Source: Gemmatimonadales bacterium
Lineage (GTDB): Bacteria > Gemmatimonadota > Gemmatimonadetes > Gemmatimonadales > GWC2-71-9
NCBI GenBank assembly: GCA_037189525.1
Contig: JBBCJC010000005.1
Location: 896,001-960,000, forward strand
Length of the DNA stretch: 64,000 nucleotides
Reading direction: 5' to 3'
Both the position numbers and the translations under genes were made by a program. The stretch's first letter is position 1, and each line of letters starts with the position of its first letter. Shown in pieces: positions 42,138 through 60,723 of this stretch. Below the pieces are notes generated by a model, which did no database searches, had not been told where the DNA came from, and saw only the letters and a list, made by a program, of their open reading frames with translations.

Positions 42138-44366
42138 ATGTACAATACTCTCAGATCGATTCGGCCCGGCCTGGCGGCCGTTGTTACGAGCACGCTCATC
42201 GCCTGTGGCGGCGGCTCGACACAACCGAACCCGCCGCCGCCTCCACCGCCCCCACCCCCGCCACCGCCGGCGGCAGTCGCCTCGGTCGCGGTTCAGCCGG
42301 GCACATTCTCGCTGGCCCCACAACAGACGCAACAGCTGACCGCCACGGTACGTGACGCCCAGGGCAACGCCCTGACCGGCCGGACCGTGACCTGGGCCAG
42401 CGATGCTCAGATCGTTGCCACGGTCAGCAACGCAGGTCTGGTCACCGCCGTTGGCGCCGGTACGGCCCGCATCACGGCAACGAGCGAAGGGCAGAGCGCG
42501 TCGGCCACGCTCACCGTGGTCAACGGCGTCCAGGTCGGATCTGCGGGCGGAAGTTTTGCCTTCGAGGACAGCACCGTCATCCTCACGATCCCCGCGGGCG
42601 CGGTGCCCAGTACGACCGTCCTCACCGTCACCCGCGTGACTACTCCGACCTCGACCGCGCCATCCGGATGGCAGCGCGTCGGTCCGGTCTATGCACTCGG
42701 CCCGGCCGGCGTTTCCTTTGCGCAGCCAGTGACCGTCACGCTGCGGTACGACATCGCGGACCTTCCGGCGTTCACGATGAGCGGCGATGTCGGCGTCCAG
42801 CAATGGACGGCCGGGACGGGGCGCAATCTGACGGGCGTGGCCGTCAATACCCAAAACCGTACCATCTCGGGACGGACCAGCAGCTTCGGGACCGCCGCCA
42901 TTGCGGGCGCGGCATCGTACGGATTGTTTGCCACCGGGACGGCCGCAGGCGACGAATCGGAAGTCGCGGTGATCGTCCAGGACCCGACCGTCAGCGTGTC
43001 TCCCGGCGAGTCGAGCGTCAACAGCACCCATCGGCACGCGAACTTCACCGTCGCCGTCGAGGCTCGCGGTGAGGGCGTCCCGTTGCCCGAGAACACCCCG
43101 GCTCTGCTCTACCGCTGGAGTTCGACGAATCAGCACGGCGGGCTGGGCATCGATGCTCCCGGAGCCAACCAGTGGACCGAGACCACCTCGGTCGAGTATG
43201 TCGCCACCAATCCCCAACTCGGGCAAATGAGCGGCCCAATCGATCAGGTGCGGGTGGAGGTATTGCTCAACCCCGAGTCGCTGACCAATCCGGCCGCAGG
43301 GCCGCAGCGGATCGTATCGGCCGAGGCCGTGGTCAATGCCGATCTTCAGGTGACCTACGACATCACGCCCGAGCGGAAGACGATCAAGCAGGGAGCGGAA
43401 GCGGACCTGCGTGCGCGCATGCGGGACAAGGAGGGCCGCGAACTCAACTTCGGCAGCGATATGAAGGCGACATGGGAAACCTCCGGCAATCACGGAGAAC
43501 TGCTCGAAACGGTCGGCCAGCAGGTGAAGTACCGGGCCTTCGAGGAGTTCGAGTTCCCTCCGCCTCGGGTGGACCGGGTGGTGACCGTGATCACCGAAAC
43601 GCGGCGCCACGACGCCGTGATCCGGGAAAAGAAGGCCATCACCAACACGATTACCGGTGAGAAGCACGCGCTGCTCGAAGCCGTGGACCTCGAAACCGAA
43701 CTGGTGCGCGGGGTCGATACGGCATTCGTCACGGTCGAGGTGGAGTACGAGGTCGAACTCACCACCAGCCGCGACACGATCCGGCTCGGCGAGACGGCGC
43801 AGCTCCGGGCCACCGTCGATCCGGAGCCTGAAGCGGAAGTCCGGTATCGGTTCACCTCGGCACAAACCCAGGGCTCCCTGACGCCGGCCAGTGGCACGCT
43901 GTCGCAGTCCTCCACGGCCCAGTACCAGGCGCGTCAGAACGCGACCGGAGGCACTGAGCGCGTCAAAGTTGAAGTCCTGAACGAGGCGCTCGAAGTGATC
44001 GCCGAAGACGAGGTGGAAATCGAGGTTGATGCGTGGCGATCGGGCAGCTTCAACGTATTCAGCCAGGATGTGAACTGCGTCGTCCCCTACATCGTCATTC
44101 CGAAGGTGGCGGGCGCAACCAGCTACGAAGTGCTGGCCGACCGGTTCAATCATCCCCAGCTCGGCACGCAGTATACCCGAACCTTCAGTGGAGCGGAGGG
44201 TGGCAATGCGCTCTACTCCGTCCAGGACATGGGCAATTCCTGGCGGATCCGTATGGAGGGCGGCGGGTGCGCCATCAGCGACGCAGCCCGTGACGTGATG
44301 CGCCAGGCCATGTTCACCCGGTTTGCAGGAATCCGGGTTCGCTTCCGGGTCACCGGAGGCCCATGA
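42138..44366 (+). CDS. Lipoprotein with poly-Pro linker, Big_2 Ig-like and ZU5-like domains
   Basis: Lipobox LIAC, 13 consecutive Pro, VTWAS...VATVS..GLVTA (Big_2) and LTIPAGAV...LGPAGVSFAQPVTVTL (ZU5-like). Confidence 0.8.
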   Translation: MYNTLRSIRPGLAAVVTSTLIACGGGSTQPNPPPPPPPPPPPPPAAVASVAVQPGTFSLAPQQTQQLTATVRDAQGNALTGRTVTWASDAQIVATVSNAGLVTAVGAGTARITATSEGQSASATLTVVNGVQVGSAGGSFAFEDSTVILTIPAGAVPSTTVLTVTRVTTPTSTAPSGWQRVGPVYALGPAGVSFAQPVTVTLRYDIADLPAFTMSGDVGVQQWTAGTGRNLTGVAVNTQNRTISGRTSSFGTAAIAGAASYGLFATGTAAGDESEVAVIVQDPTVSVSPGESSVNSTHRHANFTVAVEARGEGVPLPENTPALLYRWSSTNQHGGLGIDAPGANQWTETTSVEYVATNPQLGQMSGPIDQVRVEVLLNPESLTNPAAGPQRIVSAEAVVNADLQVTYDITPERKTIKQGAEADLRARMRDKEGRELNFGSDMKATWETSGNHGELLETVGQQVKYRAFEEFEFPPPRVDRVVTVITETRRHDAVIREKKAITNTITGEKHALLEAVDLETELVRGVDTAFVTVEVEYEVELTTSRDTIRLGETAQLRATVDPEPEAEVRYRFTSAQTQGSLTPASGTLSQSSTAQYQARQNATGGTERVKVEVLNEALEVIAEDEVEIEVDAWRSGSFNVFSQDVNCVVPYIVIPKVAGATSYEVLADRFNHPQLGTQYTRTFSGAEGGNALYSVQDMGNSWRIRMEGGGCAISDAARDVMRQAMFTRFAGIRVRFRVTGGP

Positions 44367-44397
44367 CAGAGCACAAGCTACGCAGGAAGTAGACATG

Positions 44398-44434
44398 GCA
44401 ACGGGGGGCGTACCAAGCGTACACCCCCCGTTGC
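44398..44434. terminator. Hairpin between convergent genes (probable bidirectional terminator)
   Basis: GCAACGGGGGGCGTAC-caagc-GTACACCCCCCGTTGC. Confidence 0.6.
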
Positions 44435-44466
44435 AATGTAGCGAACCTCGAAATCAGCTCGAAAAG

Positions 44467-44919
44467 CTAGCTCTTGAGCCGTTCGACGACGACGACCTTG
44501 AAGACATCCTCATTGCAGCGGAAATGCCGGGTGATCGTCTGCGTGTTCCCGGGCAGCTGCATCCGGTAATCGGAGCCCTCGACCACCACGGGCAAGCCGA
44601 GTTGGGAGGGAGCCGGCAGCAGGCCCTTCAGGTTGCCGCCGACCACGTTCGTCAGCTCGGCAAGGGCGTCCTGCAGATCCTGCCGTGTGAGGTCGTCCTG
44701 CGGCGTCGCAAACATCGAACTGGCCGCCTGCCGCCCCATCGTTTCGGTCATGAAGACGCCGATCGCGCCTTCCCAGGTACCCGAGACGGTCACGACGCCC
44801 GCATAGGGCAGCGACGACGTGTGCGACGCATCGGGATCGTCTTCCCACACCGGCAACTGCAGCATACTCTCCCAGGTTCCCTGCACGATCGGCAAGATCG
44901 ACTGCTCGAGCTCAGACAT
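44467..44919 (-). CDS. cheX: Chemotaxis phosphatase CheX
   Basis: DALAELTNVVGGNLKG...LGLPVVVEG motif; start at ATG 44919. Confidence 0.88.
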   Translation of the reverse strand: MSELEQSILPIVQGTWESMLQLPVWEDDPDASHTSSLPYAGVVTVSGTWEGAIGVFMTETMGRQAASSMFATPQDDLTRQDLQDALAELTNVVGGNLKGLLPAPSQLGLPVVVEGSDYRMQLPGNTQTITRHFRCNEDVFKVVVVERLKS

Positions 44920-45757
44920 ACTGTTTCCTCGTGTTGGTTGCCGCATACTGGTAGACGACCGCCGATCCGACCGGAGCGCGTTCGAACGCATCATCGAGCG
45001 CCATGGTCGTCTCGGCACTGCCGAGCATGAGATAGCCCTCCGGAGACAAAACCCGGCGCACCTTTCCGAAGATGTCGCGCTTCATCGCGGCGTCGAAATA
45101 GATCAAGACGTTGCGCATCAGCACGAGATCCATGGGCGGCATCACCGGCCAGGGCGCCGCCAGGTTCATCACCTGGTAGTCGACCATGGCCCGAATGTCT
45201 TCCCGGACCACCCAGTCCATCCCGACCTTCGTGAAGTATTTGAGCAAAAGCGGGGCCGGGAGCCCACGGTTGACCTCGAGCTGGGAAAACCGGCCCGCCC
45301 GGGCCCGCTCGACCATGGTGCTCGACAGGTCCGTACCGAGGAACGAGATCCGCCAATTGGCCAGCTGCGGAAAGTGCTCCTTGATGATCATGCAGATGGT
45401 CACCGGTTCCTGCCCCGAGGAGCAGGCCGCCGACCAGATGTTGAGCCTCCGCGTAGCCGCCCGGGCCTGAATCAACTCGGGCAGGATCGTCGTGCGAAGC
45501 GCCTCGAACGGATGCACGTCGCGGAAGAACGTGGTCTCATTGGTCGTCATCGCCTCGACGATTTTGGTGTGCAACGGCCCCGGAAGCCCCTTGGCAAGTT
45601 GCTCGACCAGCTCATCGACGCTCTTGAATCCCTCCGTCCGCGCGAGCGGGGCCAAGCGGGATTCCACCAGATATTCCTTCCCCGTTTCGAGTACGATTGC
45701 TGCGCGCTTCTCCACCAGAGTGCGCACGTACTCGAACGTGCCTGACTGAATTGCCAT
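44912..45757 (-). CDS. cheR: Chemotaxis methyltransferase
   Basis: TTNETTFFRD, IWSAACSSGQEP and RNVLIYF motifs. Confidence 0.96.
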   Translation of the reverse strand: MAIQSGTFEYVRTLVEKRAAIVLETGKEYLVESRLAPLARTEGFKSVDELVEQLAKGLPGPLHTKIVEAMTTNETTFFRDVHPFEALRTTILPELIQARAATRRLNIWSAACSSGQEPVTICMIIKEHFPQLANWRISFLGTDLSSTMVERARAGRFSQLEVNRGLPAPLLLKYFTKVGMDWVVREDIRAMVDYQVMNLAAPWPVMPPMDLVLMRNVLIYFDAAMKRDIFGKVRRVLSPEGYLMLGSAETTMALDDAFERAPVGSAVVYQYAATNTRKQYV

Positions 45758-45758
45758 A

Positions 45759-46877
45759 TTACCGCCCCGAAGCTGCCGGCGTCGTGCCGACGAAACGTCT
45801 GTTCGCCGCCGTCAGTCGGATGATCTCACCCGCGATCTGATTGAGCGGCAGTACGGCATCGGCCAACCCGGCCGACGCAATGAAACCGGGCATGCCCCAG
45901 ACGACCGATGACGCCTCGTCCTGGACCACCATTCGGCCGTGAACCTCGCGGATCCGCTCGGTGCCGCGGAGGCCGTCCTGCCCCATTCCGGTCAACACCA
46001 CACCTAGCAAGGCCGAACCGTAGATGCTTGCTGCGGATCGGAACATCGGATCGACGGCAGGCCGGCAGGAGTTCTCGGGCGGATCCTGGGTCAGTTTGAC
46101 CCGGACGCGCGGACCGTCCCGGACCAGCAGCATGTGCCAGTCGCCGGGGGCGATCCAGCCCGCACCCGGCGTGATGATCGCGCCTTGCGTGGCTTCGTGA
46201 AATGGGATCTTGCAATGCGCCGTGAGCCGTTCGGCCAGGAGTCGGGTAAACATCGGCGGCATGTGCTGGGTAATGACGATCGGAACCGGGAAGTTGGCCG
46301 GCAGCTGCGCCAAGACTTCCATCAGGGCGTTGGGCCCTCCGGTCGACGCGCCGATCGCGAGCAGATCGACCCGGCGCGCGCCATCGCCGCCCAGCGCCTG
46401 GCCGGTCCGCGGCAGCGCAGGAACCGAACGTGCCGCCGAGACGAGCGTAGCCGCCGGGATCCCGGCCGCCCGCGCCGCGAGCGCCTTGATCTTCGGCACC
46501 ACCTCGTCGCGAATCCGCTGCTGCGCCACGGCAACGCTGCCCACGTTGGCCGGCTTGGCCACGTAGTCCGACGCCCCGCGCGAGAGCGCATCCAGCGTGG
46601 CCGCGCCGCCCCGCTCGGTGAGCGTACTGAACATGATGACCGGCAGCTTGGGCCACGTCTTCCGAATCTCGGAGACGGTCTCGAGCCCGTTGAGTTCGGG
46701 CATCTCGACATCGAGCGTCACGATATCCGGATTGACCTGCGGAATCTTCTGCAGGGCGATCCGGCCATTGGCAGCCGCGCCGACGACCTCGAGCTCCGGA
46801 TCGGCGGCCAGCACGTCCGTGAGCATGCGGCGGACGACGACGGCGTCGTCCACCACGAGCACGCGAATTTTGCGCAT
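45759..46877 (-). CDS. cheB: Chemotaxis response regulator methylesterase
   Basis: REC domain plus GASTGG, QHMP, RPAVD and LTGMGQDG motifs. Confidence 0.96.
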   Translation of the reverse strand: MRKIRVLVVDDAVVVRRMLTDVLAADPELEVVGAAANGRIALQKIPQVNPDIVTLDVEMPELNGLETVSEIRKTWPKLPVIMFSTLTERGGAATLDALSRGASDYVAKPANVGSVAVAQQRIRDEVVPKIKALAARAAGIPAATLVSAARSVPALPRTGQALGGDGARRVDLLAIGASTGGPNALMEVLAQLPANFPVPIVITQHMPPMFTRLLAERLTAHCKIPFHEATQGAIITPGAGWIAPGDWHMLLVRDGPRVRVKLTQDPPENSCRPAVDPMFRSAASIYGSALLGVVLTGMGQDGLRGTERIREVHGRMVVQDEASSVVWGMPGFIASAGLADAVLPLNQIAGEIIRLTAANRRFVGTTPAASGR

Positions 46878-46887
46878 CGGGTGGGTA

Positions 46888-47262
46888 TTACGCGGCCGAC
46901 GCGAGGCCGAGGATCTCGAGCTTGCCCTGCAGCGAGTCCTTGGTAAACGGCTTCATCAGATACTCGTTGGCGCCCGCCTCCATGGCCTGGCTCACCTGCG
47001 AGGCCTCGGTTTCAGTGGTCGCCATCACGATCTTGAGCGCGTTGTACTGCGCGTCGGCGCGGACCGCCTTGACGAACTCGAGTCCGTTCATCTCCGGCAT
47101 ATTCCAATCGCAGAGGACGACATCGGGTGCTCCGTCCTGCTGCAGCTTCGCGAGCGCTTCTTTCCCGTGACCGGCTTCACCACACGTGAATCCGAGCTCG
47201 GTCATGAACCGGCTCAGCATGATGCGCATCGCGCGAGAATCATCGACAATGAGGGCGCGCAA
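46888..47262 (-). CDS. cheY: Single-domain response regulator
   Basis: TTG start with AAGGAG RBS; IVDDS, DWNMP and KPF motifs; inside the che operon. Confidence 0.9.
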   Translation of the reverse strand: MRALIVDDSRAMRIMLSRFMTELGFTCGEAGHGKEALAKLQQDGAPDVVLCDWNMPEMNGLEFVKAVRADAQYNALKIVMATTETEASQVSQAMEAGANEYLMKPFTKDSLQGKLEILGLASAA

Positions 47263-47383
47263 CGTAACAACTCCTTGAGTGATGGTGATCGTCCGAATCC
47301 CGTTCTACGAGACCGCACGCTGTGCTTAGTGTCGGCCTCACGAGAACAAACTTGAGCTTCAATTCCGTATTAGATCGCCCGTT

Positions 47384-48273
47384 TTATTCCAGCCAGACAG
47401 CAACCGTCTTGGCTCCGGTATCACACCGGAACAGCGGGCCCTCTGCGAACCCGCTTACGACCGCGCCGCGGGCAATCTCGGCCACGTCGACCCCGTCTGC
47501 CGCGAGGCGGTACGCAAGATCTTCCGGGACCATGTCCGGCAGATCCGCGGCGCGATGCGCGGCAAAAGTCAGCTAGACCCGCCGCTCGCCGGCTTCGGTT
47601 ACCCGAAGCTTGAGGTGCGTCGAAGCGCCGCGCTGTGGTACGGACGGCCGCACCGGAACGGCTGCTGCGCCGCACGCTCGCACGATCGGCTCCGGCACCG
47701 CGAGACCGCGGACACGCGCCACAGCCCGGAACCGCCGAAGCATCTCGGCCTCGCCCCGATAGTCCAATTCACGCCGGAGCATCGCACCAACTTCCGCGCG
47801 GTACGCCGCGGCGTCGAACCGGCTCAGACCACCGAAGGGAAGCGTGATCCACTCGAGCGCCTGCAGATCCAATGCGAGGATCCTTCGATGTCCGGATACT
47901 TCACTTTGACGGCCACCGCGCGACCATCCGGCAGCCGCGCCCGATGCACCTGCCCGATCGACGCCCCGATACCCGCGGGGTCGAACTCCGCGAAGAGGTG
48001 TTGCGGATCGGTACCGAGCGACGCGCGGATCGCGCGGGCGGCTTCCGCCGCCGACAGAACCGGACCGGTGTCGGCGAGTTCCGGCAGCGAGGGCGTGCTC
48101 GAACCCAGGTCGACCGTGTCCACCACCTGCCCCACTTTGCGCGGCAAGCCACGGAGCGAGGCGAGGCGGTGAACCACCTTGGCCCGGAGTCGAGCGTCGT
48201 CCGGCTTCTGCTTGAGGAGGAGCATGTCTTTCGCCAGTCCCCCCAGCTGCGCCGCGCGCGTCAGCGTCGTCAT
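47384..48273 (-). pseudogene. ABC1/AarF/UbiB atypical kinase pseudogene
   Basis: N-terminal LRGLPRKVGQ...ASIGQVHRA...AVKVKYP; frameshift at about 47880; continues ELDYRGEA...VPEP; catalytic core absent; in-frame TAG at 47573; the same frame continues 62 codons to ...VAVWLE-TAA (47384). Confidence 0.8.
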
Positions 48274-48324
48274 ACGAGTGACGCCGGAACGGCCCAGAGC
48301 CGCCCCGGCGTCTCCCCCGTCGGC

Positions 48325-49944
48325 TTACGCCGACTTGTTCTGCACGAGCCCCTGCAGCTCGGCGGCCATCCTCGTGAGCTCCGCCGACGCCTTGAGCGAG
48401 TCGTTGGCGCCCTGCGAGGTCGCGATCGCCGCCTGCGCGACGGCCGTGATGTTCTCGGCGATCTCCGCCGAGCCCTTGGCCGCTTCGCCCACGTTACGGC
48501 TCATCTCGTTCGTGGTCGCGGTCTGCTCCTCCACCGCGCTCGCGATCGTGGTCTGGATCTCCGCGATCCGGTTGATCACGCTGGAGATCTCCTGAATCGC
48601 GGTGACCGAGCCGGCGGTATCCTGCTGGATCGCCTCGATCTTCTGGCTGATGTCCTCGGTGGCCTTGGCGGTTTCCTTGGCCAGCTCCTTGACCTCGTTG
48701 GCCACGACCGCGAAGCCCTTGCCGGCCTCACCCGCGCGCGCCGCTTCGATCGTGGCGTTGAGCGCGAGGAGGTTGGTCTGCTGCGCAATCGAGGTGATCA
48801 CCTTGATGACCTTACCGATCTCGGCGCTCGATTCACCCAGCTTGGCGATGGTGCCGTTGGTCGTCTCCGCCGCCCGGACGGCCTGACCGGCCACCCGTGA
48901 CGCCTCGGAAGCGTTGGAGGCGATTTCGCGAATGCTCGCGCTCATCTGCTCCGTACCGGTCGCGACCGTGACGACGTTCTTGCTGACCTGCTCCGACGCC
49001 GCCGACACCACATTGGCCTGCGCCGCGGTCTCCTCGGCGTTGGCGCTCATCTGCTGGCTCACGGTGTTGAGCTCTTCCGCGGCCGCCGCGAGCGACGTGG
49101 CGCTCTCACGCACCTTGCGCTCCAGTTCGACCTTGGCCGTGATGATTTCCCACGTCACCATCGGGCCCACGTAGGTGCCGGTGGAGTCGTAGATCGCGCT
49201 CGCCAGGAGGTCCAGGGTCTCCGGACCAACCCGGATCTCGGCACGATGCGGCAGGTTCTTCGGGTCGCCCAGGAGCCGGCGCTGATGCGACGGATCCTTG
49301 TGGAAGATGTCGATGTTCGAACCGAGCACCTGCGCCGCCTTCACGGGGAGCCACTGCTCGATCGAGGCAAGCGTCTTGGTCGACGCCGGATTCATGTACT
49401 GGATCCGGAGATCGCGGTCCGCCATCATCACGTTCATGGGCGCGTTCTCCATCATGGTCATCGCGAGCGCGGCTCTCTTGGTGGCCGAGATGTCCGACGC
49501 GAACTTGACGACCTTGAACGGCCGGCCCGCCTGATCGACGATCGGGTTATAGGACGCCTGGATCCAGACTTCCTTTCCGCCCTTACCGAACCGCTTGAAC
49601 TCCGCCACCTGCGCTTTGCCCGCGCCAAGGTCCTGCCAGAACGTCTGGTATTCCCGGGACGTGGCGTACTCGGGGTCGACGAAGAGCCGGTGATGCTGGC
49701 CCTTGATCTCCTCGAGCCGGTAACCCAGCACGGCGAGAAAATTATCGTTGGCCGTGATGACGGTACCATCGAGTTCGAACTCGATGACCGCCTGCGTCTT
49801 ATTGACGGCGTCGAGCTTCGAGTTGAGCTCGTTCAGTTCGTCCGCAGCGATCTCGACCGTCTCCGATTGTCCGGTGAGCTCGGCTACTCCCTGGCTAATG
49901 TCCGCAGCCCGGCGATTCCGGGCGGGTGCAGTCGCTTGCTTCAT
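48325..49944 (-). CDS. Soluble methyl-accepting chemotaxis protein with two PAS domains
   Basis: No TM; PAS1 AVIEFELDG...[11 protein letters not shown]2 NVMMAD...[11 protein letters not shown]; signalling hairpin [30 protein letters not shown]. Confidence 0.93.
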
Positions 49945-50035
49945 ACCTTCCCCTTTCTGACCCCGGCCTGGCCGGCGTTGGTTGTGACGATTGACGACAT
50001 GGTTTGTTTCGGGTTCATATTGCTTGGAATCTGCT

Positions 50036-50491
50036 TCACGGCCGTCCCACGCCCGCCATGAGCAACGAGGCGTGTTCGGCCGGCTGGTCGAGATCTTCTA
50101 CCTGCGCATACGTCGGTTCGGGCGACGAGATCATGTAGCTGGTGGCGTAGTTTGCCAGTCGTAACACCACGAAGGCCATGCCCAGGTATCGATGCGCCAG
50201 GTGGGATGAGACGCCCGATCGCAGCTTCCGGACACCCAGGCCGACCTGGACGAGATAGATCAGCAGCACCAGCACCGAGGCGACGATGTGGAAGGTCAAC
50301 ACCGCACCGAGCGGCGCGGTGGTGACTTTCTCGACGGCGGACCGGGTCAACTCGATGTAGAGCACCAGCCCCAGGTCCACGACGAGCGCGGCGACCATGA
50401 ACGCGAGATGGATTCTCGCGCGGCGGCGGAAGTACAAGCCGAGTCCGACCAGGACCAGCACCAAGGTGGAGAATGCATGCAACCCGGTCAT
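50036..50491 (-). CDS. Small 4-TM membrane protein with His residues (DUF420-like)
   Basis: Four hydrophobic helices; His at about 5, 28, 68, 97 and 100; ATGA overlap with cheW. Confidence 0.7.
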
Positions 50492-50928
50492 TTTGCACTG
50501 GCCGGCTCGAGAGCCGTTGCCCGGGCCGTGTCGAGCACGAGCAGCAGGCGGCTGGGGAGCTTGTAGACGCCATTGATCAGAATCTTGGCGCTCGGCGGCA
50601 GCGTTTCGGGCGTCGGTTCGTAGCTTTCGTCCGAGGCTTCGATCACGTCGCCGATCTCGTCGACGAGGAGACTAATGGCGCCGTCGTCGCTCCGCACGAC
50701 GACATTCATCGGCTCGACGCCTTCGGGACGCGGCGCCAGGCTCAGCCGGGTCCGCAAGTCGATCGCGGTGACGATCTGGCCGCGCAGATTGATCAGCCCG
50801 TTCACAGCCGGCGGTGCGAGCGGTACCCGGGTCACTTGCAAGCTGCGAATCACTTCCTGGACTTGCAGTACGTCGACGCCGAAGTACAGATCGTTCACGT
50901 AGAACGTACAGAACTGTTGCGTGGCCAT
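50488..50928 (-). CDS. cheW: Chemotaxis coupling protein
   Basis: VQEVI...TRVPLAP...GLINLRGQIV...LLVDEIGDV motifs. Confidence 0.95.
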   Translation of the reverse strand: MATQQFCTFYVNDLYFGVDVLQVQEVIRSLQVTRVPLAPPAVNGLINLRGQIVTAIDLRTRLSLAPRPEGVEPMNVVVRSDDGAISLLVDEIGDVIEASDESYEPTPETLPPSAKILINGVYKLPSRLLLVLDTARATALEPASAK

Positions 50929-50930
50929 GG

Positions 50931-53246
50931 TTATCCCTCCGCCCCGGCGCCGGCCGGCACGCGGCTATCGACGTGATTCAAGCCTGCCAGACCGACCACC
51001 GCTTCGATGTCGAGCAGGTCGGTGACGCGATCCTGGACGACCGCCGAACCCGCGACGGCTCGCCCGTTGGAGCGGCGATCCACCACGATCTGTTGTTCCA
51101 CGATATCGGTGATCTGATCGACCATGAGGCCGATGCTCTGGCCGCGATGGGCGTACACGACGACCTGAATCGGGTCCTCGATCTCGTTATGCCGGGTAAC
51201 CCCGTCGAGGATCTCGTCCAAGCGCACCAAGGGCATGATCTCACCGCGGTATTGCACAACGCGCCGTGTGCCCGCGAGTTCGGTCGACGCCACCGGGAAC
51301 TCCTCCAGCCGGGCAATCTCGGAGAGCGGCACCGCCAGCCGGCGATCCTGGCCCGCGCGGAACAGGAGCAGAGTCCGCCGATCGCCGTCGTCGCTCGCGG
51401 TGCCGGCGGTTGCCTCGGTTCGGGCCCGATCGTGTTCCGATTGCAGTACGCCCGACTGCTGCGCCAGACCGCCCACATCGAGAATCAACGCCACTTTGCC
51501 GTCGCCCATGATGGTTGCTCCCGCAAAGGCCGCGATCCCCTTGAGCTGCTTGGCGAGCGGCTTGACCACGATTTCTTCGGTATCGTTGATCTCGTCCACC
51601 ACCAGGCCGAACTGGGTCCCGTCGGCCTGAAGCACCACCACGTTCACCGCTTCGCGCCCGGCGACATCCCACCGCTCCGCCGTACAGCCCAGCGCGTGAT
51701 TGAGCACCACGAGCGGAAGGAGATTGCCCCGGAGCCGGTACACCGGCGCTCCGTAAATCAACTCGATGCTGCGTCCGATTTCCTCGCCCTCGAGGCGGAC
51801 CAATTCGAGCAGGCTCACCTGCGGAATGGCGTAGCGGTCGCCGTGCGAAGTCACGATGAGGCCCGGGATGATCGCCAGCGTCAGCGGAATCCGAATCCGC
51901 AGCGTGGTTCCCTGCCCCGTCACGCTGTTCACATCGACCGTGCCACCGATCTTCTCGATGTTGGTCTTGACGACGTCCATGCCGACTCCGCGACCCGACA
52001 CGTTCGTGACCTTGGCCGCCGTCGAAAACCCGGGCGCGAAGATCAGGTTGAACGCCTCACGGTCGTTGAGCCGCCCCGCCTGCTCGGTCGTGAGCAGTCC
52101 CTTCTGGACGGCTTTCTGCTTGATCACGGCGGGATCGATCCCGCCACCGTCATCGCTGATCTCGATGTTGACCTGCCCGCCCTCATGGAAGGCGCGCATG
52201 AAGATCCGACCCTCGGCCGGCTTGCCGCGCGCGAGCCGGACGTCCGGCGCTTCGATGCCGTGGTCGGCCGAGTTGCGGACGATATGGGTGAGCGGATCCT
52301 TGATGGCTTCGATGATGGTCTTGTCGAGCTCGGTCTCCTTGCCTTCCATCTCCAGCCGGATCTGCTTACCACAGCTCGAGGCGAGGTCGCGCACGACGCG
52401 CGGGAACTTGCTCCAGACGTTGCCGATCGGCTGCATCCGCGTCTTCATGACGCCTTCCTGCAGCTCGGTGGTAATCAGGTTGAGTCGCTGCGACGTGGCG
52501 CCGAGCGTGTGATCGGCGCTGGTCGTGAGGTGCTGCAGGATCTGGTTCCGGGCCAGCACCAGCTCGCCTACCAGATTCATCAGCCGGTCGAGGAGACCCA
52601 CGTCGACGCGAATGGTGCTATCGGCGACGGACGAGGCGGCCCGGCTCCCTTCCGCCGCTTGCGTTTCCAGCACCTCGGCGATGACCTGCGGCGGCACCTG
52701 GGCCTGCTCGACCAGGATCTCGCCGATGTGGCGCGGGTCGCCGGAGAGCTGCCGTTCGGCGGCCTCCCGGACATCGTCCTGCGTCACGAGCCCCCGTTCC
52801 ACTAGATGGTCTCCCATGTTCTTGGGCGACCCGGCCTCATCGGGAGCCGACGACGCCGCCTGATCCTCCTGCAGCGCCGTGAGCCGCGCAATCAGGGCGG
52901 TATAGTCGACCTCCCCCTCCGCGCCGGTCGACTCGATGCTCCCCAACATCTGACGCAGGGCATCGACCAGCTGAAGCAGCGCACTGGTTCGTTCCGGGGT
53001 TAGATCCCGGACCCCGTCCCGCAGCAGCGAGAGCAGGTTTTCACCGACGTGGCTCACCGATTCGAGCTTCTTCAAGCCCAGAAAGCCGCAGGTCCCTTTG
53101 ATTGTATGGACGCAGCGGAAAATCCGGGCAAGCAGCTCCTGATCCTTGGGACGCTGCTCCAGCGCGACCAGGTCGCGATCGAGCTGGTCGAGGCCTTCAT
53201 TGCTCTCGACCAGGAACTCCCTCGTGATTTCATCTAGCTCGTGCAT
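50931..53246 (-). CDS. cheA: Chemotaxis histidine kinase with MshEN-like insert and two CheW domains
   Basis: HPT (FRCVHTIKG), dimerisation (LMNLVGELV), HATPase (RNSADHG, GFSTA, SGRGVGMDVV), P5 and an extra CheW domain. Confidence 0.96.
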   Translation of the reverse strand: MHELDEITREFLVESNEGLDQLDRDLVALEQRPKDQELLARIFRCVHTIKGTCGFLGLKKLESVSHVGENLLSLLRDGVRDLTPERTSALLQLVDALRQMLGSIESTGAEGEVDYTALIARLTALQEDQAASSAPDEAGSPKNMGDHLVERGLVTQDDVREAAERQLSGDPRHIGEILVEQAQVPPQVIAEVLETQAAEGSRAASSVADSTIRVDVGLLDRLMNLVGELVLARNQILQHLTTSADHTLGATSQRLNLITTELQEGVMKTRMQPIGNVWSKFPRVVRDLASSCGKQIRLEMEGKETELDKTIIEAIKDPLTHIVRNSADHGIEAPDVRLARGKPAEGRIFMRAFHEGGQVNIEISDDGGGIDPAVIKQKAVQKGLLTTEQAGRLNDREAFNLIFAPGFSTAAKVTNVSGRGVGMDVVKTNIEKIGGTVDVNSVTGQGTTLRIRIPLTLAIIPGLIVTSHGDRYAIPQVSLLELVRLEGEEIGRSIELIYGAPVYRLRGNLLPLVVLNHALGCTAERWDVAGREAVNVVVLQADGTQFGLVVDEINDTEEIVVKPLAKQLKGIAAFAGATIMGDGKVALILDVGGLAQQSGVLQSEHDRARTEATAGTASDDGDRRTLLLFRAGQDRRLAVPLSEIARLEEFPVASTELAGTRRVVQYRGEIMPLVRLDEILDGVTRHNEIEDPIQVVVYAHRGQSIGLMVDQITDIVEQQIVVDRRSNGRAVAGSAVVQDRVTDLLDIEAVVGLAGLNHVDSRVPAGAGAEG

Positions 53247-53372
53247 TCAGTCTCTCACGCAAACGGGTTCCCAAGGGCCCGGCTGTCGCCGACCGCCCCG
53301 ATCGTCCTCGGTTCTGCCGCGGTGGCCCGCAGCCTCGTGAAGATTGCCGGACAGAAATCTTCGCTAACCCAA

Positions 53373-53390
53373 CATGAAGAAATCTTCATG
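53373..53390. promoter_or_regulatory. Palindromic site upstream of cheA
   Basis: CATGAAGA-AA-TCTTCATG (8-2-8); overlaps a sigma54-like TGGCATG-N4-TTTCT on the minus strand. Confidence 0.45.
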
Positions 53391-53550
53391 CCACAATCGT
53401 GCAGATTCGTTCACCCCGTGGTTTTGCCGCTTCGCAAGGTTCAACCCCGGAAAGTCGTGCCGAAAATAGCCCACTTTTTCCTACCACTCGGAAGAAAGTG
53501 GTCCACTCCGTCGGGCATTTTCAGCATATCGATGTGATATTTTCGATGGG

Positions 53551-54807
53551 TCAGTCGACGATCTGGAGGCCGACGAGGATCTGTTCTCGCGCAGCAGAGC
53601 GAAAAGCTGCATAATGCGGCCAGGATGTCGCAGCCTTCGCAGGCGCGTCGGTGACGTTCGTAGGCAAGCCCATCTTGAGATCGAGGTCCCGCAGCAGCAG
53701 CGACGCGCGAATCCGCCCGGCCAGGGTATTGGTGAGCTCGTTGAGCACGTCGACGGCGCCTTCCTCGAGGGTCAACTCGGTACCGAGCATCTTGGCCGAC
53801 AGGCTGAGCACGGAGGGCTCGTCGCTGAGCAGCGAGACCTCGAGCCTTACCTTGGACTCGTCCGAGCCCAGGACCAGCGTCGAGCGGATCGGCAGCGCCA
53901 GGGTCGCGGCCTCTTCGGCATCGAGCTGGACGAGCTCCTGGCCGATCAGAACGCCGATCGTCTGCTGGGTAGCCGACAGCACCTCCGGCTCCAGTTCACC
54001 CTCCAGAAGCGCCGTCAGCTTCTCCTGGGGAGACATCGACTTGAGCACCACCCGCTGGATCGCCGCCGTGAACTGTTCGGGCACGAACGTCTTCTTGAGC
54101 ACGCCGCTGAAGAGTTTGGCTTTCTCGGGGTCGACCGAATCGGCCTGCGTCGTGAGGTAGATCTCCGGCGGATCGGCCTTGAGCCGCGCGGCAATCCGAC
54201 CCAGCGTCTCGATCATCTGGATCTCGCTGAGCAGCGGCAACCCCTCGGGTACCAGCACGACGCGCGGCGTCGGATTGCGCTCCTGGAAGAGCGACGCCGC
54301 CTTGGGCGCCGAGGTCGCCTCGAGCACGTCGAAGTGCGCGGCCAGCAAGGGTTTGGCAAACGCCAGGAAGTTCGGATCCGTCTCCACCAGCAGCATCTCG
54401 GTGGCCGCGCCCGCCGGGGCGCGCTGCCGCCAGCGATCGGCATTCTTGAGCACGGCGCGAAGCCGTGGCACCGCGATGTCCGGACGGAGGGGTTTAAGCA
54501 GGAAATCGCTGATCCCGATCTGGATCAGCTCCCGAATCACTACATCGTCGCTCACGGCGGAGATACAGACGACCGGGATGTCCCGGTACTTCTCCGAGGA
54601 ACGGATCGCGCGGAGGGTCTCGAGGCCGTTCAGGATCGGCATTTCGATGTCGATCACAAGGAAGTCGACCTTGGTCTTGCCGTCTTCGAGCATCGAGAGC
54701 AACTCGAGGCCGTTCTCGGCTTCGCGCGTCTCGACATCGAGCTGCTGCAGCACCCGCCGCAGCACGGTGCGCATGCTTCGCTCGTCGTCGGCAATCAGCG
54801 CGAGCAC
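53551..54807 (-). CDS. Response regulator: REC + degenerate REC + CheX-like phosphatase domain
   Basis: Probable GTG start at 54807 with GGAG RBS; IADDE, IDIEMP and KP motifs; second REC-like MLLVETD...LKK; C-terminal DVLNELTNTLAG...MGLP. Confidence 0.8.
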   Translation of the reverse strand: MLALIADDERSMRTVLRRVLQQLDVETREAENGLELLSMLEDGKTKVDFLVIDIEMPILNGLETLRAIRSSEKYRDIPVVCISAVSDDVVIRELIQIGISDFLLKPLRPDIAVPRLRAVLKNADRWRQRAPAGAATEMLLVETDPNFLAFAKPLLAAHFDVLEATSAPKAASLFQERNPTPRVVLVPEGLPLLSEIQMIETLGRIAARLKADPPEIYLTTQADSVDPEKAKLFSGVLKKTFVPEQFTAAIQRVVLKSMSPQEKLTALLEGELEPEVLSATQQTIGVLIGQELVQLDAEEAATLALPIRSTLVLGSDESKVRLEVSLLSDEPSVLSLSAKMLGTELTLEEGAVDVLNELTNTLAGRIRASLLLRDLDLKMGLPTNVTDAPAKAATSWPHYAAFRSAAREQILVGLQIVD

Positions 54808-55270
54808 GAGTCGACTCCGCGCCGGCCGGCCCCAAAGGCCTCGAACCGATATCGTCTTCGCAGCGCTCGCGGGCATGCGTGCCCTGCCGGCGCCCCGGTC
54901 TTTTTTGGTGTGTACTGCTGTATTCGCATGTTCCTCGCTTCGACCGTAGCAATCGGCTATCGACGGACCGCGTCCCTGGCCGATCGTCCGTGTCTGGCGT
55001 ACCCATCAGACATTATGTCGCACGGCGCCCGGGTCGGCGTCGTACCAGTTCGGGGGCAACCATCGCATGCCTGGTGCCACGCCGGCCGGAAAGCTCGTGC
55101 TGACGAGTCCGGCTATACTCCCTGCGATGTGATTGCTGGACGTTTCATCCTGGACCGGCACGCAACAGGTCCCCCGGACGCCCCGGTTCTTCGGGCCTAG
55201 GTATCGGAGAGAAGGTTGCCGAGCTTTAAAGTTCGCCTTGTTGAACAACGCCCGGGCGACGGGAGGCCCC

Positions 55271-55495
55271 ATGCAACCCTACGGCAACCGAAGCGGTCGA
55301 TCGGGAGTCACCCACTACGAAATCGGGCCCGATTTCATTCGGGTCCGGTTTGGGACGCCGACGATATACGTCTACGACTACACCATACCGGGTAAGGATG
55401 CCGTCGAGCACATGAAGGAGCTGGCGCGCACGGGTCGCGGGCTCAGCACCTATATCAGCCAACACATCCGGGAGCGATACGTCCGCACGGAATAG
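55271..55495 (+). CDS. Small conserved hypothetical protein (KTSC-like)
   Basis: GGAGG RBS; SGVTHYEIG.DFIRVRF...YVYDY...MKELA..GRGLSTYI pattern. Confidence 0.65.
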   Translation: MQPYGNRSGRSGVTHYEIGPDFIRVRFGTPTIYVYDYTIPGKDAVEHMKELARTGRGLSTYISQHIRERYVRTE

Positions 55496-55766
55496 GTTCA
55501 CTCGCGCGTCAGCAAATTACCGATGAGTGAAGTCGGAATTTTCTCTCGTCCTTAAATTTCTCAATCCTCCAGAACGGCAGTCGGTACGTGCGCGCACGCG
55601 CGTGCGCTCATGAAGACGGCCTCATAGTCACTCAACGTTCACTTCACGCCCTCCCCGAGAGATTCCGGCGCCAACATCGTCATCCCCCTCACCCCTGAGG
55701 GGGACCGGTGCAGTACCGGTGGACCCCGGGGGTCCGACGATCAGGATCACGACAAGGAGATCGGGT

Positions 55767-57983
55767 ATGGGCGGATCCGCCGTCGGGACCGCGGCGAGCG
55801 AGGGAGTGCTCGACGAGTTCACCTACGATGACGCCATCGTCCGGAAGTTCCTCATAGCGACGGTCGTATGGGGCTTGGTGGGCATGCTGGCCGGATTGCT
55901 GGTGGCGCTGCAGATGGCCAATCCCGCTTTCAACCTGGGGATCGAGTGGACCTCCTTCGGTCGACTCCGCCCGCTGCACACCAACGCGGTCATCTTCGCC
56001 TTCGGTGGGAACGCCTTCTTCACCGGCGCCTACTACTCGACCCAACGGCTCCTCAAAGCGCGGATGTGGTCGGACGGGATGTCCAAGTTCCACTTCTGGG
56101 GCTGGCAGGCCATCATCGTGGCCGCGGCGCTGACCCTTCCCCTCGGCATGACCCAGGCGAAGGAGTATGCGGAGCTGGAGTGGCCGATCGACATCGCGAT
56201 TGCCGTGGTATGGGTGGTCTTCGCGGTGAACTTCATGATGACGATGATTCACCGCCGCGAACGCCATCTCTACGTCGCGATCTGGTTTTATGTCGCGAGC
56301 ATCATCACGGTTGCCATCCTGCACATCTTCAACAACCTGTCGATTCCGGCGGCCGGACACTTCAAGAGTTACTCGCTCTACGCCGGGGTCCAGGACGCTT
56401 TCATGCAATGGTGGTACGGCCACAATGCCGTCGCCTTCTTCCTGACGACGCCATTCCTCGGCCTGATGTACTACTTCATGCCGAAGGCCGCGGAGGGGCC
56501 GGTCTTTTCCTACCGGCTCTCCATTCTGCATTTCTGGTCGCTGGTCTTCATCTATATCTGGGCCGGCCCGCACCACCTGCACTACACCTCGTTGCCGGAG
56601 TGGGCCTCCACGCTCGGGATGCTCTTCTCGGTCATGTTGTGGGCCCCGAGCTGGGGCGGCATGATCAACGGCCTGCTCACCTTGCGTGGCGCCTGGCACA
56701 AGGTCATCGACGACCCGATCCTCAAGTTCTTCGTCGTCGGCATCACGGCGTACGGGATGAGCACGTTCGAAGGACCGATGCTCTCGATCAAGAGCGTCAA
56801 CGCACTGGCCCACTACACCGATTGGATCATCGCGCACGTCCACACCGGCGCGCTCGGCTGGAACGGCTTCATCACCTTCGGCATGGTCTACTGGCTCCTG
56901 CCGAGACTGTTCCAGGCCCCGCTCCATTCGAAGAAACTGGCGGAGGCCCATTTCTGGATCGGCACCCTGGGCATCATCCTCTATGTCCTCGCGATCTACT
57001 CGGCCGGCGTGACGCAGGGCCTGATGTGGCGCGCGTTCGATGATACCGGGCGGCTCACCTACCCCGATTTCGTCGAGACCGTGGTCAGGCTGATCCCGAT
57101 GTACTGGGTCCGCGTCGCGGGCGGCTCGCTCTATATCGTCGGCGTCGTCCTGCTGCTCTACAACGTGATCATGACGTGGCGGAAGCGGCCGGTCCGGTAC
57201 GAGGTCCCGATCATCCGCGCGGCGCCGTTGGCGCCGAAATTCACGGCCCCCGAAGCGGCCCCGGTTGCCGGCGGCCTGCTGGCGCGGTTCCGTTCGCTGG
57301 CCTTCCATCGCCGGTGGGAACGGATGCCGGTGCTCTTCACGGTGCTGACCACTCTGGCCGTGATCATCGCGTCGCTGTTCGAAATTCTGCCGACCTTTCT
57401 GATCCGGTCGAACGTGCCGACGATCGCATCGGTCAAGCCGTACACCCCGCTCGAGCTGTATGGCCGCGACATCTATATCCGCGAAGGGTGCTTCAACTGC
57501 CATTCGCAGCAGATCCGTCCGCTCCGCTACGAAACCGAGCGCTACGGCGAGTACAGCAAGCCGGGCGAAGCGGTGTACGAGCATCCCTTCCTCTGGGGCT
57601 CGCGACGGATCGGTCCGGACCTGGCACGCACCGGCGGCAAGTATCCCAATCTGTGGCACGTCCGGCATTTCGAGAATCCGCAGGAGATCGCGGCCGGATC
57701 GATCATGCCGTCGTACCGCCACTTCAGTACCCGCAGCATCGACTGGGATGTGCTCGGCAAGCGGGTCGGCACCATGGCAATGCTCGGCGTGCCCTACGGT
57801 GATGCCGTGACCCAGGCTGCCCCGATGGCCAAGGCGCAGGCGGAAACGATCGCCCGCGATATCGAAGCGGCTGGCGGCCCCAAGGCGCTGGGCGACAAAG
57901 AGATGGTCGCGATCATCGCATACATGCAGCGGCTCGGTCGTGACATCACGGCCGGCAGCTCCGCAACGGCGGGTGCCCCGTGA
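55767..57983 (+). CDS. ccoNO: cbb3-type cytochrome c oxidase, fused subunits I/II
   Basis: AAGGAG RBS; RLRPLHTNAVIF, QWWYGHNAV, WAGPHH and IIAHVH, then REGCFNCHSQ and WGSRRIGPDLAR. Confidence 0.96.
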   Translation: MGGSAVGTAASEGVLDEFTYDDAIVRKFLIATVVWGLVGMLAGLLVALQMANPAFNLGIEWTSFGRLRPLHTNAVIFAFGGNAFFTGAYYSTQRLLKARMWSDGMSKFHFWGWQAIIVAAALTLPLGMTQAKEYAELEWPIDIAIAVVWVVFAVNFMMTMIHRRERHLYVAIWFYVASIITVAILHIFNNLSIPAAGHFKSYSLYAGVQDAFMQWWYGHNAVAFFLTTPFLGLMYYFMPKAAEGPVFSYRLSILHFWSLVFIYIWAGPHHLHYTSLPEWASTLGMLFSVMLWAPSWGGMINGLLTLRGAWHKVIDDPILKFFVVGITAYGMSTFEGPMLSIKSVNALAHYTDWIIAHVHTGALGWNGFITFGMVYWLLPRLFQAPLHSKKLAEAHFWIGTLGIILYVLAIYSAGVTQGLMWRAFDDTGRLTYPDFVETVVRLIPMYWVRVAGGSLYIVGVVLLLYNVIMTWRKRPVRYEVPIIRAAPLAPKFTAPEAAPVAGGLLARFRSLAFHRRWERMPVLFTVLTTLAVIIASLFEILPTFLIRSNVPTIASVKPYTPLELYGRDIYIREGCFNCHSQQIRPLRYETERYGEYSKPGEAVYEHPFLWGSRRIGPDLARTGGKYPNLWHVRHFENPQEIAAGSIMPSYRHFSTRSIDWDVLGKRVGTMAMLGVPYGDAVTQAAPMAKAQAETIARDIEAAGGPKALGDKEMVAIIAYMQRLGRDITAGSSATAGAP

Positions 57984-58207
57984 AGCTCTCCGATATCGTA
58001 GGTAATGCCGGCCTTTCGGCCTATGCCGAGGTAGCGCTGGTGTTCTTCCTGATCGCGTTCGGGCTGATCGTCTGGTGGGTCTTTCGCCCCTCGGCCCGCT
58101 CCCGATGGCAGGAGGACAAGATGATTCCGCTCGACGACGGCCGGAACGGGACCGTCCCGAACGGTACGACACCGAACCACTCCAGGACCCCGGCGAGGCA
58201 CGGATGA
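57980..58207 (+). CDS. ccoQ: cbb3 oxidase small subunit
   Basis: Single TM plus IPLDD; lies between ccoO and ccoP. Confidence 0.8.
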   Translation: MKLSDIVGNAGLSAYAEVALVFFLIAFGLIVWWVFRPSARSRWQEDKMIPLDDGRNGTVPNGTTPNHSRTPARHG

Positions 58208-58758
58208 GCGACAAGGATCGGTTGGTCGAGCACGAATATGACGGCATCCAAGAGTACGACAATCCGATGCCGCGGTGGTGGGTCACCATCTTCTGGGTCA
58301 CCATTGCGTACTCGATCGTCTACGCCCTCAACCTCGGCGGCCTCGGCAGCGGCAAAGGCCGAGTCGCCGAATACGAATCGGACATGGCAGCCTGGCGCGA
58401 GGCGCACCCACAGGGCCCGGGCCCGGCCGATCCCGCCGCGCTCCTTGCCATGGCCGAGGATCCCGCCGCCATGGCAGAGGGCAATACGATCTACCAGCGC
58501 TATTGCGCCGCCTGCCACGTGGCCGACGGCGGCGGACTGATCGGCCCCAACCTGACCGACGATTACTGGCTGCACGGCGGCAGCATCGATAGCGTCCACG
58601 CCGTGATCGTCGAAGGGGTCCTGGCCAAGGGCATGCCGCCCTGGGGCAAGACGCTGAATGCTGCGCAGGTCAATCAGGTCACCGCGTACGTCTGGGCGCT
58701 GCACGGCACCACGCCCAAGCAGGCCAAGGCCCCCCAGGGAGTGCGCGTCCCCAGGTGA
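58204..58758 (+). CDS. ccoP: cbb3 oxidase subunit III (mono-heme)
   Basis: HEYDGIQEYDNPMPRWW, a single CAACH, GPNLTD and GMPPW motifs. Confidence 0.9.
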   Translation: MSDKDRLVEHEYDGIQEYDNPMPRWWVTIFWVTIAYSIVYALNLGGLGSGKGRVAEYESDMAAWREAHPQGPGPADPAALLAMAEDPAAMAEGNTIYQRYCAACHVADGGGLIGPNLTDDYWLHGGSIDSVHAVIVEGVLAKGMPPWGKTLNAAQVNQVTAYVWALHGTTPKQAKAPQGVRVPR

Positions 58759-60161: not shown

Positions 60162-60721
60162 GCCGCCTGTTCCGTAAAGACCGGATCTGGCCCGCAGCCA
60201 TTACCCTCGTGTTGCTGGGTAACGTGGCCCTCGGCGTCACCCTGATCCGGGTCGCCTCGGCCGACCCGCACTTTGCCGTCGAGCCCGACTACTACCGCCG
60301 GGCCGTGGGGTGGGACACGACCCAGGCGCAGGTCCGCCGCTCGGCAGCACTCGGCTGGCAGGTCCATCCGACCCTGGCCCCGGTCTCCGGCGATTCGACC
60401 CCGCTGGTCATCCTGCTCACCGACCGGGATGGCGCGCCGCTCGATTCGGCGCAAATCGAGATCGTGGCCCGGCCCGTGGCCCATGCGGACCGGACCGTTT
60501 CCGGTACACCGACCGCATACGGAGCCGGGAGATACACCGCAACCATGGCAATCGATCGCCCGGGTCTGTGGGAAGTGACCGTCACCGTCGACCACGCCGG
60601 CGAGCGGCTGGTTGCGCCGCTCCGCATCGATGCCCGTCCGGATGCCATCGGGACGCTGATCACCAGCCGCCCGGGCCAGCCGGACCCGGCGCGCGTCGCC
60701 GCTGGACTCCGGCGGGAGTAG
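60158..60721 (+). CDS. ccoH: FixH/CcoH family protein
   Basis: N-terminal TM, VEPDYY and PGLWE motifs; position in the operon. Confidence 0.78.
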   Translation: MSRLFRKDRIWPAAITLVLLGNVALGVTLIRVASADPHFAVEPDYYRRAVGWDTTQAQVRRSAALGWQVHPTLAPVSGDSTPLVILLTDRDGAPLDSAQIEIVARPVAHADRTVSGTPTAYGAGRYTATMAIDRPGLWEVTVTVDHAGERLVAPLRIDARPDAIGTLITSRPGQPDPARVAAGLRRE

Positions 60722-60723
60722 CC

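Follow-up and report, generated by a model that had tools for sequence, protein, structure and literature searches.

An F5-type chemosensory operon with an Aer2-type PAS receptor and recurring accessory genes that may serve heme supply

F5-class chemosensory systems are marked by an AW...BR gene order, a CheA with a second CheW domain and a 38H receptor (PMC10746217, PMC10782961). Among heme-containing receptors, Aer2 binds b-heme via H234 (PMC13401364). One described precedent is the gene cluster Cc-5 of Corallococcus coralloides, with the order CheA-CheW-MCP[globin+PAS]-ABC1-ABM-CheB-CheR (MCP, methyl-accepting chemotaxis protein), which was analysed in silico and for which aerotaxis was proposed (PMC6194562). 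According to the same source, related clusters carry no ABC1, and the gene was taken as a one-off tied to ubiquinone. The operon considered here lies at 44467..54807 (minus strand) of a 64,000-nucleotide stretch, called the window, from a Gemmatimonadales bacterium (assembly GCA_037189525.1, contig JBBCJC010000005.1, positions 896,001 to 960,000). Its core is of the F5 type, and it also contains the remnant of an ABC1 gene and a DUF420-like membrane protein gene. The new observation is that an ABC1 subfamily, the DUF420-like protein and a second hemA recur in heme-type chemotaxis operons of four phyla. The operon is tentatively read as an O2-taxis operon with an optional heme-supply module for heme-type receptors, whose ATPase gene is broken here; this reading falls a little short of probable.

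Two protein families bear on the accessory genes. COQ8 works as an ATP-gated chaperone: it draws quinone precursors bearing a carboxyl group out of membranes. Its pocket contains R431, and in COQ8B this arginine has been tied to the preference for carboxyl ligands (bioRxiv 10.64898/2026.02.03.703536). CtaM, the studied DUF420 protein, is required for the heme-copper oxidases aa3/caa3 and has been proposed to be a copper exporter (PMC9145763, PMC13344008). An aerotaxis review contains no occurrence of "ABC1" or "heme loading" (PMC13401364). Literature searches, with most subscription journals outside their coverage, yielded no paper on a recurring ABC1-DUF420-hemA module. Both the way in which soluble heme sensors acquire heme and the cargo of most bacterial UbiB/ABC1 proteins are poorly understood.

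Accessory genes next to heme-type receptors

The recurrence was seen in two locus surveys, in which loci and genomes bear L and G numbers (G000 being the genome of the window). The first started from CheA: the best 80 of 597 loci were combined with 16 family loci, and 65 of these 96 had an MCP gene plus cheB or cheR and were thus informative, a filter that dropped L021 and L028, both of which carry accessory genes. ABC1, DUF420 or hemA was present in 7 of the 24 loci encoding a globin or an Aer2-like PAS domain, hereafter heme-type, versus none of the 41 others (Fisher p 5e-4, counted over kin that are not independent). These seven loci span four phyla. The second survey started from ABC1. Outside Nitrospinota, 27 loci were reduced to 23 by removal of the near-duplicates L088, L092, L093 and L113. 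A same-strand core che or MCP gene lies within 5 kb of ABC1 in 18 of them, and two more have cheY-cheC directly downstream, which makes 20/23 che-adjacent, or 17/20 without the three loci found through cheA. The neighbours include a heme-type receptor (14 loci), a globin (10), DUF420 (8) and hemA (5, four from the neighbour scan and that of L119 by Pfam). At least one of these four stands near ABC1 in 19 of the 23 loci; among the remaining four, three have 707 bp or less of upstream DNA. No quinone-synthesis gene was noticed among the neighbours scanned around subfamily loci. A further hemA lies elsewhere in all five genomes tested; a search of G000 with the che-linked HemA, not extended to the GlutR_N family, gave nothing at E 1e-8. 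L108, from the same genus, shares the gene order of the window; its ABC1 is intact and its receptor carries a globin. The original prediction had singled out an ABC1 kinase and a four-helix membrane protein as members foreign to standard chemotaxis gene sets, and both surveys support their recurrence as such in related che operons.

The ABC1 subfamily was delimited with the L034 protein as query (best 120 of 2901) as 87 clusters at E<1e-63, after which values drop to 1e-44. Its members are about 510 residues long and carry an extra C-terminal domain of about 80 residues, found in 85/87 subfamily proteins versus 0/41 outgroup proteins. KxGQ, the Ala-rich loop, VAVK, HxD and DFG are kept in the intact relatives. 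The nearest solved structures are COQ8B/COQ8A by sequence (9tvk, E 2.8e-63) and COQ8A by fold (4ped, Z 31, root-mean-square deviation (rmsd) 3.6, 367 aligned residues, predicted local distance difference test score of the model 91), and the subfamily is classified on this basis as COQ8-like UbiB/ABC1. An arginine matching COQ8B R431, mapped by hand from the 9tvk sequence alignment, is kept in 86/87 subfamily versus 11/41 outgroup proteins. The C-terminal domain has no Pfam match and a best Atlas score of 0.79, below lead level, while the whole-model fold search barely probes it. In a quick tree of 55 rows, the subfamily forms one clade (Shimodaira–Hasegawa-like approximate likelihood ratio test, SH-aLRT, 100); che-linked members fall on each of its two main branches, and Nitrospinota are nested; a 16-row clade (SH-aLRT 99) is entirely che-linked across phyla at about 40% identity. 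This topology fits an old chemotaxis link, in a sampling that started from a che-linked query. A stand-alone 81-residue gene that matches the C-terminal domain only lies directly upstream of the full ABC1 gene at L074:10682-10927.

Full-length members are rare, with 3/401 genomes in the phylum of the window (four further matches being generic), 3/301 in Verrucomicrobiota, 1/301 in Acidobacteriota, 5/301 in Planctomycetota and 1/331 in Myxococcota, where matches in 39 other genomes lack the C-terminal domain. The subfamily is carried by 36/61 genomes of Nitrospinota. Since most genome searches scored only 3 to 5 candidates per genome, members may have been missed. An exclusive link to chemotaxis can be rejected from Nitrospinota and from several other non-che settings: L112/L113; L117:4184-8401, where ABC1 lies between two globins with a CDGSH protein and a glyoxalase-like gene; and L153:4362-13949, where it lies among apparent small-GTPase and roadblock-like genes (read by eye). 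A strict tie to globins was rejected as well, since G000 (98% complete) has no Bac_globin match and in a relative at about 95%, whose ABC1 is probably intact, the receptor begins in the same way, without a globin. Two further neighbours were recorded. In the Nitrospinota loci L137-L152, the M16 (pitrilysin-like) peptidase directly ahead of ABC1, with which it makes a conserved pair, has a signal-like N-terminus and often an EamA transporter upstream. A protein of 230-260 residues without a Pfam family recurs near ABC1 in che and non-che loci (L074:9884-10666, L091:7057-7746, L153:10099-10893).

The four-helix membrane protein of the window (50036..50491) is related to DUF420/CtaM at a level below the Pfam cut-off (E 0.0044; 17.8 bits against PF04238, with a gathering cut-off of 30.5), which its relatives in L112 and L115 pass. 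An AlphaFold2 model has four helices. The alignment with 150 relatives revealed three invariant histidines, H28 (144/144 rows), H68 (150/150) and H100 (147/150), together with near-invariant D39, E47 and M32; the earlier description as His-rich comes down to these three residues. A fourth histidine is present in 45/96 relatives, and a cytochrome b561-like pattern needs four heme-ligating ones. There was no PDB sequence match. Fold searches led to generic bundles, with cytochrome b561 on top in Foldseek at a non-significant E of 0.37 and Dcytb among the matches (Z 11.4, rmsd 4.3, 124 aligned), and Atlas returned unnamed clusters, with a DUF420 lead on 40% of one cluster. From its conserved residues, the ligand of this protein may equally be heme or copper.

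The operon in the window

The receptor gene (48325..49944, minus strand, as all genes of the operon) encodes a two-PAS MCP that is predicted to be soluble, having no hydrophobic segment, and that contains neither a globin nor, by Pfam, a HAMP domain flanking its PAS domains. PAS2 (49132-49470) matches Aer2 PAS structures at E 1.7e-20 to 8e-15 (6ceq, E 1.7e-20; 4hi4, E 9.6e-16) and retains both histidines of the FHK.P.HQ heme-pocket motif and the C-terminal tryptophan. PAS1 is closest to MmoS/Aer PAS domains (3ewk, E. coli Aer), which bind flavin adenine dinucleotide. O2 sensing is thus likely because of the Aer2-type PAS, and would take place through a predicted heme at PAS2; the O2/heme link first proposed for the operon gains support from this domain. 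The receptor likely works like Aer2 without being an Aer2 ortholog. Other receptor architectures were met on the way. At L119:2006-5956, a soluble receptor in which seven Aer2-type PAS domains stand in tandem is encoded upstream of cheR-cheB-cheD-ABC1-globin-hemA. Split receptors, in which a small PAS protein precedes a short one with the signalling domain, occur at G000:C2:864601-866072 and in L089, L093 and L095, an arrangement that resembles CetA/CetB.

Directly behind the receptor gene, the ABC1 remnant (47384..48273) proved to be a pseudogene of the COQ8-like subfamily. Compared with intact relatives, its reading frame shifts near 47883, about 220 codons are missing at about 47685-47692, among them the HxD and DFG motifs with the catalytic loop, and an in-frame stop lies at 47573-47575. 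The copy therefore has no intact catalytic core, and ABC1 cannot be the working part of the array that had been envisaged for this genome, because the gene is broken. An assembly error is unlikely to be the source, given three separate lesions and a 24.9-kb contig of run X1 (depth 104) that carries them with zero differences, X1 being possibly the source sample. In three other studies, contigs of low depth from relatives at 92-95% do not have the frameshift; in two of these the sequence runs on past the deletion point, no single contig spanning the gene. The loss looks recent and strain-specific.

The remaining genes form an ordinary F5 core. They are cheA (50931..53246; Hpt, dimer, HATPase and two CheW domains, no P2 domain being found), cheW (50488..50928), cheY (46888..47262), cheB (45759..46877; receiver, REC, and methylesterase domains), cheR (44912..45757) and cheX (44467..44919; phosphatase with an ELTN motif). 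From cheA through cheX the intergenic gaps are -8 to 121 bp. A REC-CheX regulator (53551..54807), with a REC, a degenerate REC and a CheX-like domain bearing the ELTN phosphatase motif, precedes cheA by 304 bp and is probably its own transcription unit. Active-site motifs are kept in CheA, CheB, CheR and both CheX domains. Gene calling and Pfam confirmed the gene order first proposed: REC-CheX, then cheA, cheW, the four-helix gene, the receptor, the ABC1 remnant, cheY, cheB, cheR and cheX. The order cheA-cheW...cheB-cheR and the second CheW domain of CheA (Pfam) are those of the F5 class, and the C-terminal arm of the receptor, 133 residues or 19 heptads, has the 38H length as a count, not as a match to a class hidden Markov model. 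The operon is accordingly classified as F5-type on gene order and domains. Among the matches listed, the nearest CheA relative, at 83%, is from a Gemmatimonas metagenome-assembled genome.

A flagellar gene cluster is encoded in G000. In three relatives (G196, G189, G367), cheA closes the flagellar cluster, and the two genes on either side of it are adjacent in G000, where this site is empty; in L028 and L034 the che operon comes after fliP. A flagellar output is therefore likely, and both operon copies of G000 would have moved away from the flagellar site. At that site in G189 and G367, the operon is apparently reduced to a cheA fragment (residues 1-454; L134/L135). The second copy in G000 lies about 50 kb off (L081:8646-19575; G000:C5, about 994.6-1005.6 kb) and is 69-84% identical to the window operon in 8/9 proteins, the REC-CheX regulators ahead of the two sharing 69% identity. 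It has kept the DUF420-like gene, lacks ABC1 and encodes a longer receptor, with about 65 extra residues where HAMP would stand. DUF454 (YbaN-like) and HDOD genes lie upstream of it, in synteny with L001.

The cbb3 oxidase operon of the window (55767-63907, plus strand: fused ccoN-ccoO, ccoQ-like, ccoP, ccoG, ccoH, a membrane gene and ccoI) is the single cbb3 copy of the genome. It was originally described as standing back-to-back with the che operon. The two are indeed divergent neighbours, with about 900 bp between the REC-CheX and cbb3 starts, and the description is loose because a 74-residue open reading frame without a Pfam match (55271-55495, plus strand) separates them. A link between oxidase and chemotaxis was rejected, since ccoNO is near cheA in 0/96 loci and no FNR-like box, with up to 2 mismatches to the consensus, lies between 54658 and 56777. 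A scan of 44300-56000 found no sigma-70-like promoter and is uninformative at this GC content. On the other side, a lipoprotein-like gene with a proline run and Ig-like and ZU5 domains (42138-44366, plus strand) converges with cheX.

Heme supply and competing explanations

In the scheme proposed for the core, O2 binding at PAS2 would change CheA activity, phosphorylated CheY would act on the motor, CheB and CheR would adapt the response and CheX would reset it, a sequence of events that we regard as quite probable; the operon would likely steer the flagellum toward preferred oxygen levels. For the accessory genes, heme supply is the most economical reading, held with slightly less than even confidence. 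It is possible, perhaps a shade less so, that in a complete module the extra HemA raises tetrapyrrole flux, that the histidine-bearing membrane protein keeps heme membrane-bound, and that the COQ8-like ATPase lifts this carboxylated hydrophobic cofactor out and passes it to the PAS or globin domain, much as COQ8 treats quinone precursors. Since the ATPase was lost, apparently recently, in this strain, the operon would here rely on the housekeeping heme supply. With a broken ABC1 copy, the window makes a weak example, and L108 and L034 are better cases.

Several observations weigh against heme supply. ABC1 is a minority feature, found in 3/80 CheA loci, and the DUF420-like gene in 4/80, a scoring of cheA loci that the original prediction had suggested. 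Moreover, 17/24 heme-type operons are without all three accessory genes, and the module is on both counts dispensable. ABC1 and DUF420 are lost independently, L034 having only the former and L001, L016 and L081 only the latter. In L087, hemA and ABC1 adjoin a receptor without Aer2-type PAS or globin, some PAS domains scored as heme-type have no pocket histidine (L121, L122, L130), and the hemA of L130 is short. The R431-equivalent arginine is also present in 16/16 Nitrospinota proteins, and in all 16 loci fetched from the 36 of that phylum, ABC1 follows the M16 peptidase with no che or heme gene. Copper export is now proposed for CtaM (PMC13344008), and DUF420-ABC1 lies behind multicopper oxidase and YHS genes in L112/L113. 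Whether Aer2 itself acts in aerotaxis is a matter of debate (PMC13401364).

These copper-related contexts also feature in a different explanation, in which the core serves O2 taxis and the extra genes serve membrane respiration, DUF420 in copper handling or oxidase assembly like CtaM and ABC1 as a quinone or lipid chaperone, all co-located only through shared low-oxygen regulation. CtaM is needed for aa3/caa3 oxidases and may export copper (PMC9145763, PMC13344008), the three histidines and the methionine fit copper as well as heme, a SCO gene lies near ABC1 in L089, and COQ8, the closest solved relative, handles quinone precursors. This explanation is nevertheless unlikely: no oxidase gene appeared in the 96 cheA loci (ccoNO being the only query), the recurring neighbours are hemA and globins, not oxidase subunits, and the accessory genes are restricted to operons with heme-type receptors. 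ABC1 could also be a signalling input that senses the redox state of the membrane or of its quinones and affects the array by phosphorylating or binding a component, perhaps via its C-terminal domain. Its immediate predecessor is usually the receptor gene (at 28-100 bp in 9/23 loci), its catalytic residues are intact in the subfamily, the C-terminal domain separates subfamily from outgroup and precedes ABC1 as a stand-alone copy in L074, and COQ8 has been described as a CoQ (coenzyme Q) sensor (10.64898/2026.02.03.703536). Yet the KxGQ domain, which occupies the protein-substrate site in UbiB proteins according to the same source, is kept, the hemA and globin neighbours are left unexplained, and neither the window operon nor its paralog has an intact ABC1, so that a signalling role appears rather improbable. 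The quinone or redox sensing by ABC1 that was first suggested finds less favour among the neighbours than heme supply. The ABC1 pseudogene in the window, the low ABC1 counts in four phyla (3/401, 3/301, 1/301 and 5/301 genomes), the quite different ABC1 neighbours in Nitrospinota and L117/L153, and an operon that was moved, duplicated and, in G189 and G367, reduced to a cheA fragment might all suggest mere passengers: a mobile low-oxygen block that landed a few times in F5 operons and is now decaying, with no tie to the array. That is improbable in view of the che-linked members on both main branches, the 16-row che-linked clade across phyla and the same restriction to heme-type operons.

A further proposal, independent of these, is that an insert in CheA (about residues 142-195) binds cyclic di-GMP (c-di-GMP) and tunes the kinase. 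The insert comprises two tandem 24-residue motifs that resemble MshEN, a receptor pattern defined by two RLGxxLxxxGLIxxxxLxxxLxxQ motifs and a five-residue linker, and for which CheA fusions are already listed (PMC5013675). It retains the first glycine, the hydrophobic positions and the terminal glutamine in both motifs, and 10 GGDEF matches were found in G000. Both arginines are however replaced (by Asn and His), the turn glycine of motif 2 is an alanine and the linker is six residues long, one more than in the pattern; Pfam gave no MshEN match at E<=0.5, and among the 14/68 related CheAs with the pattern, an arginine is present in 3. A c-di-GMP input, as had been predicted, is doubtful because the motifs lack both arginines, and such binding is judged not very likely.

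Heme supply, if it does apply, may be taken one step further. The COQ8-like ATPase with its own C-terminal domain, the histidine-bearing DUF420 protein and the second HemA would then constitute an undescribed heme-delivery machine for soluble O2 chemoreceptors, with a chemotaxis link ancestral for the subfamily; this stronger version is rather doubtful. If true, it would bring a non-quinone cargo to the UbiB family and a new class of maturation factors to chemotaxis. More generally, the ABC1 subfamily and its company of heme-type receptors, globins, DUF420 and hemA suggest heme or porphyrin as a candidate cargo and provide a candidate acceptor as well as an easy read-out, and the finding extends a link that was taken as unique to one myxobacterium (PMC6194562).

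Comparison with described systems

The window operon is like the F5 class in its AW...BR order, in a CheA with two CheW domains and in the 38H length of its receptor, to which it adds cheX, the REC-CheX regulator, the degenerate MshEN-like insert and the accessory genes. Aer2 systems, by comparison, belong to the F7 class. Aer2 of P. aeruginosa and V. cholerae (4hi4, 3vol, 6ceq; PMC13401364) and the window receptor share the PAS2 sequence with its pocket histidines, and both are soluble and encoded inside their own che operon. Unlike Aer2, the window receptor has no HAMP domain, has an added Aer/MmoS-like PAS and belongs to an F5 operon. COQ8A/COQ8B and Mycobacterium Rv3197 (9tvk, 4ped, 5yjz) share with the ABC1 subfamily the fold, KxGQ, the Ala-rich loop, HxD, DFG and the R431-type arginine; the subfamily differs from them by its extra C-terminal domain of about 80 residues without a Pfam match, and the window copy is in addition broken. 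CtaM/YozB (DUF420; PMC9145763, PMC13344008) is a four-helix membrane protein like that of the window, which in contrast falls under the Pfam cut-off and lies in a che operon instead of an oxidase operon. The Cc-5 cluster is an AW...BR operon in which, as in the present group, ABC1 comes right after the gene of a soluble heme-type receptor. Unlike Cc-5, where ABM is the further member, the present loci have DUF420 and hemA and show the link across four phyla, Cc_4973 (WP_014397686.1) being compared by its published description only.

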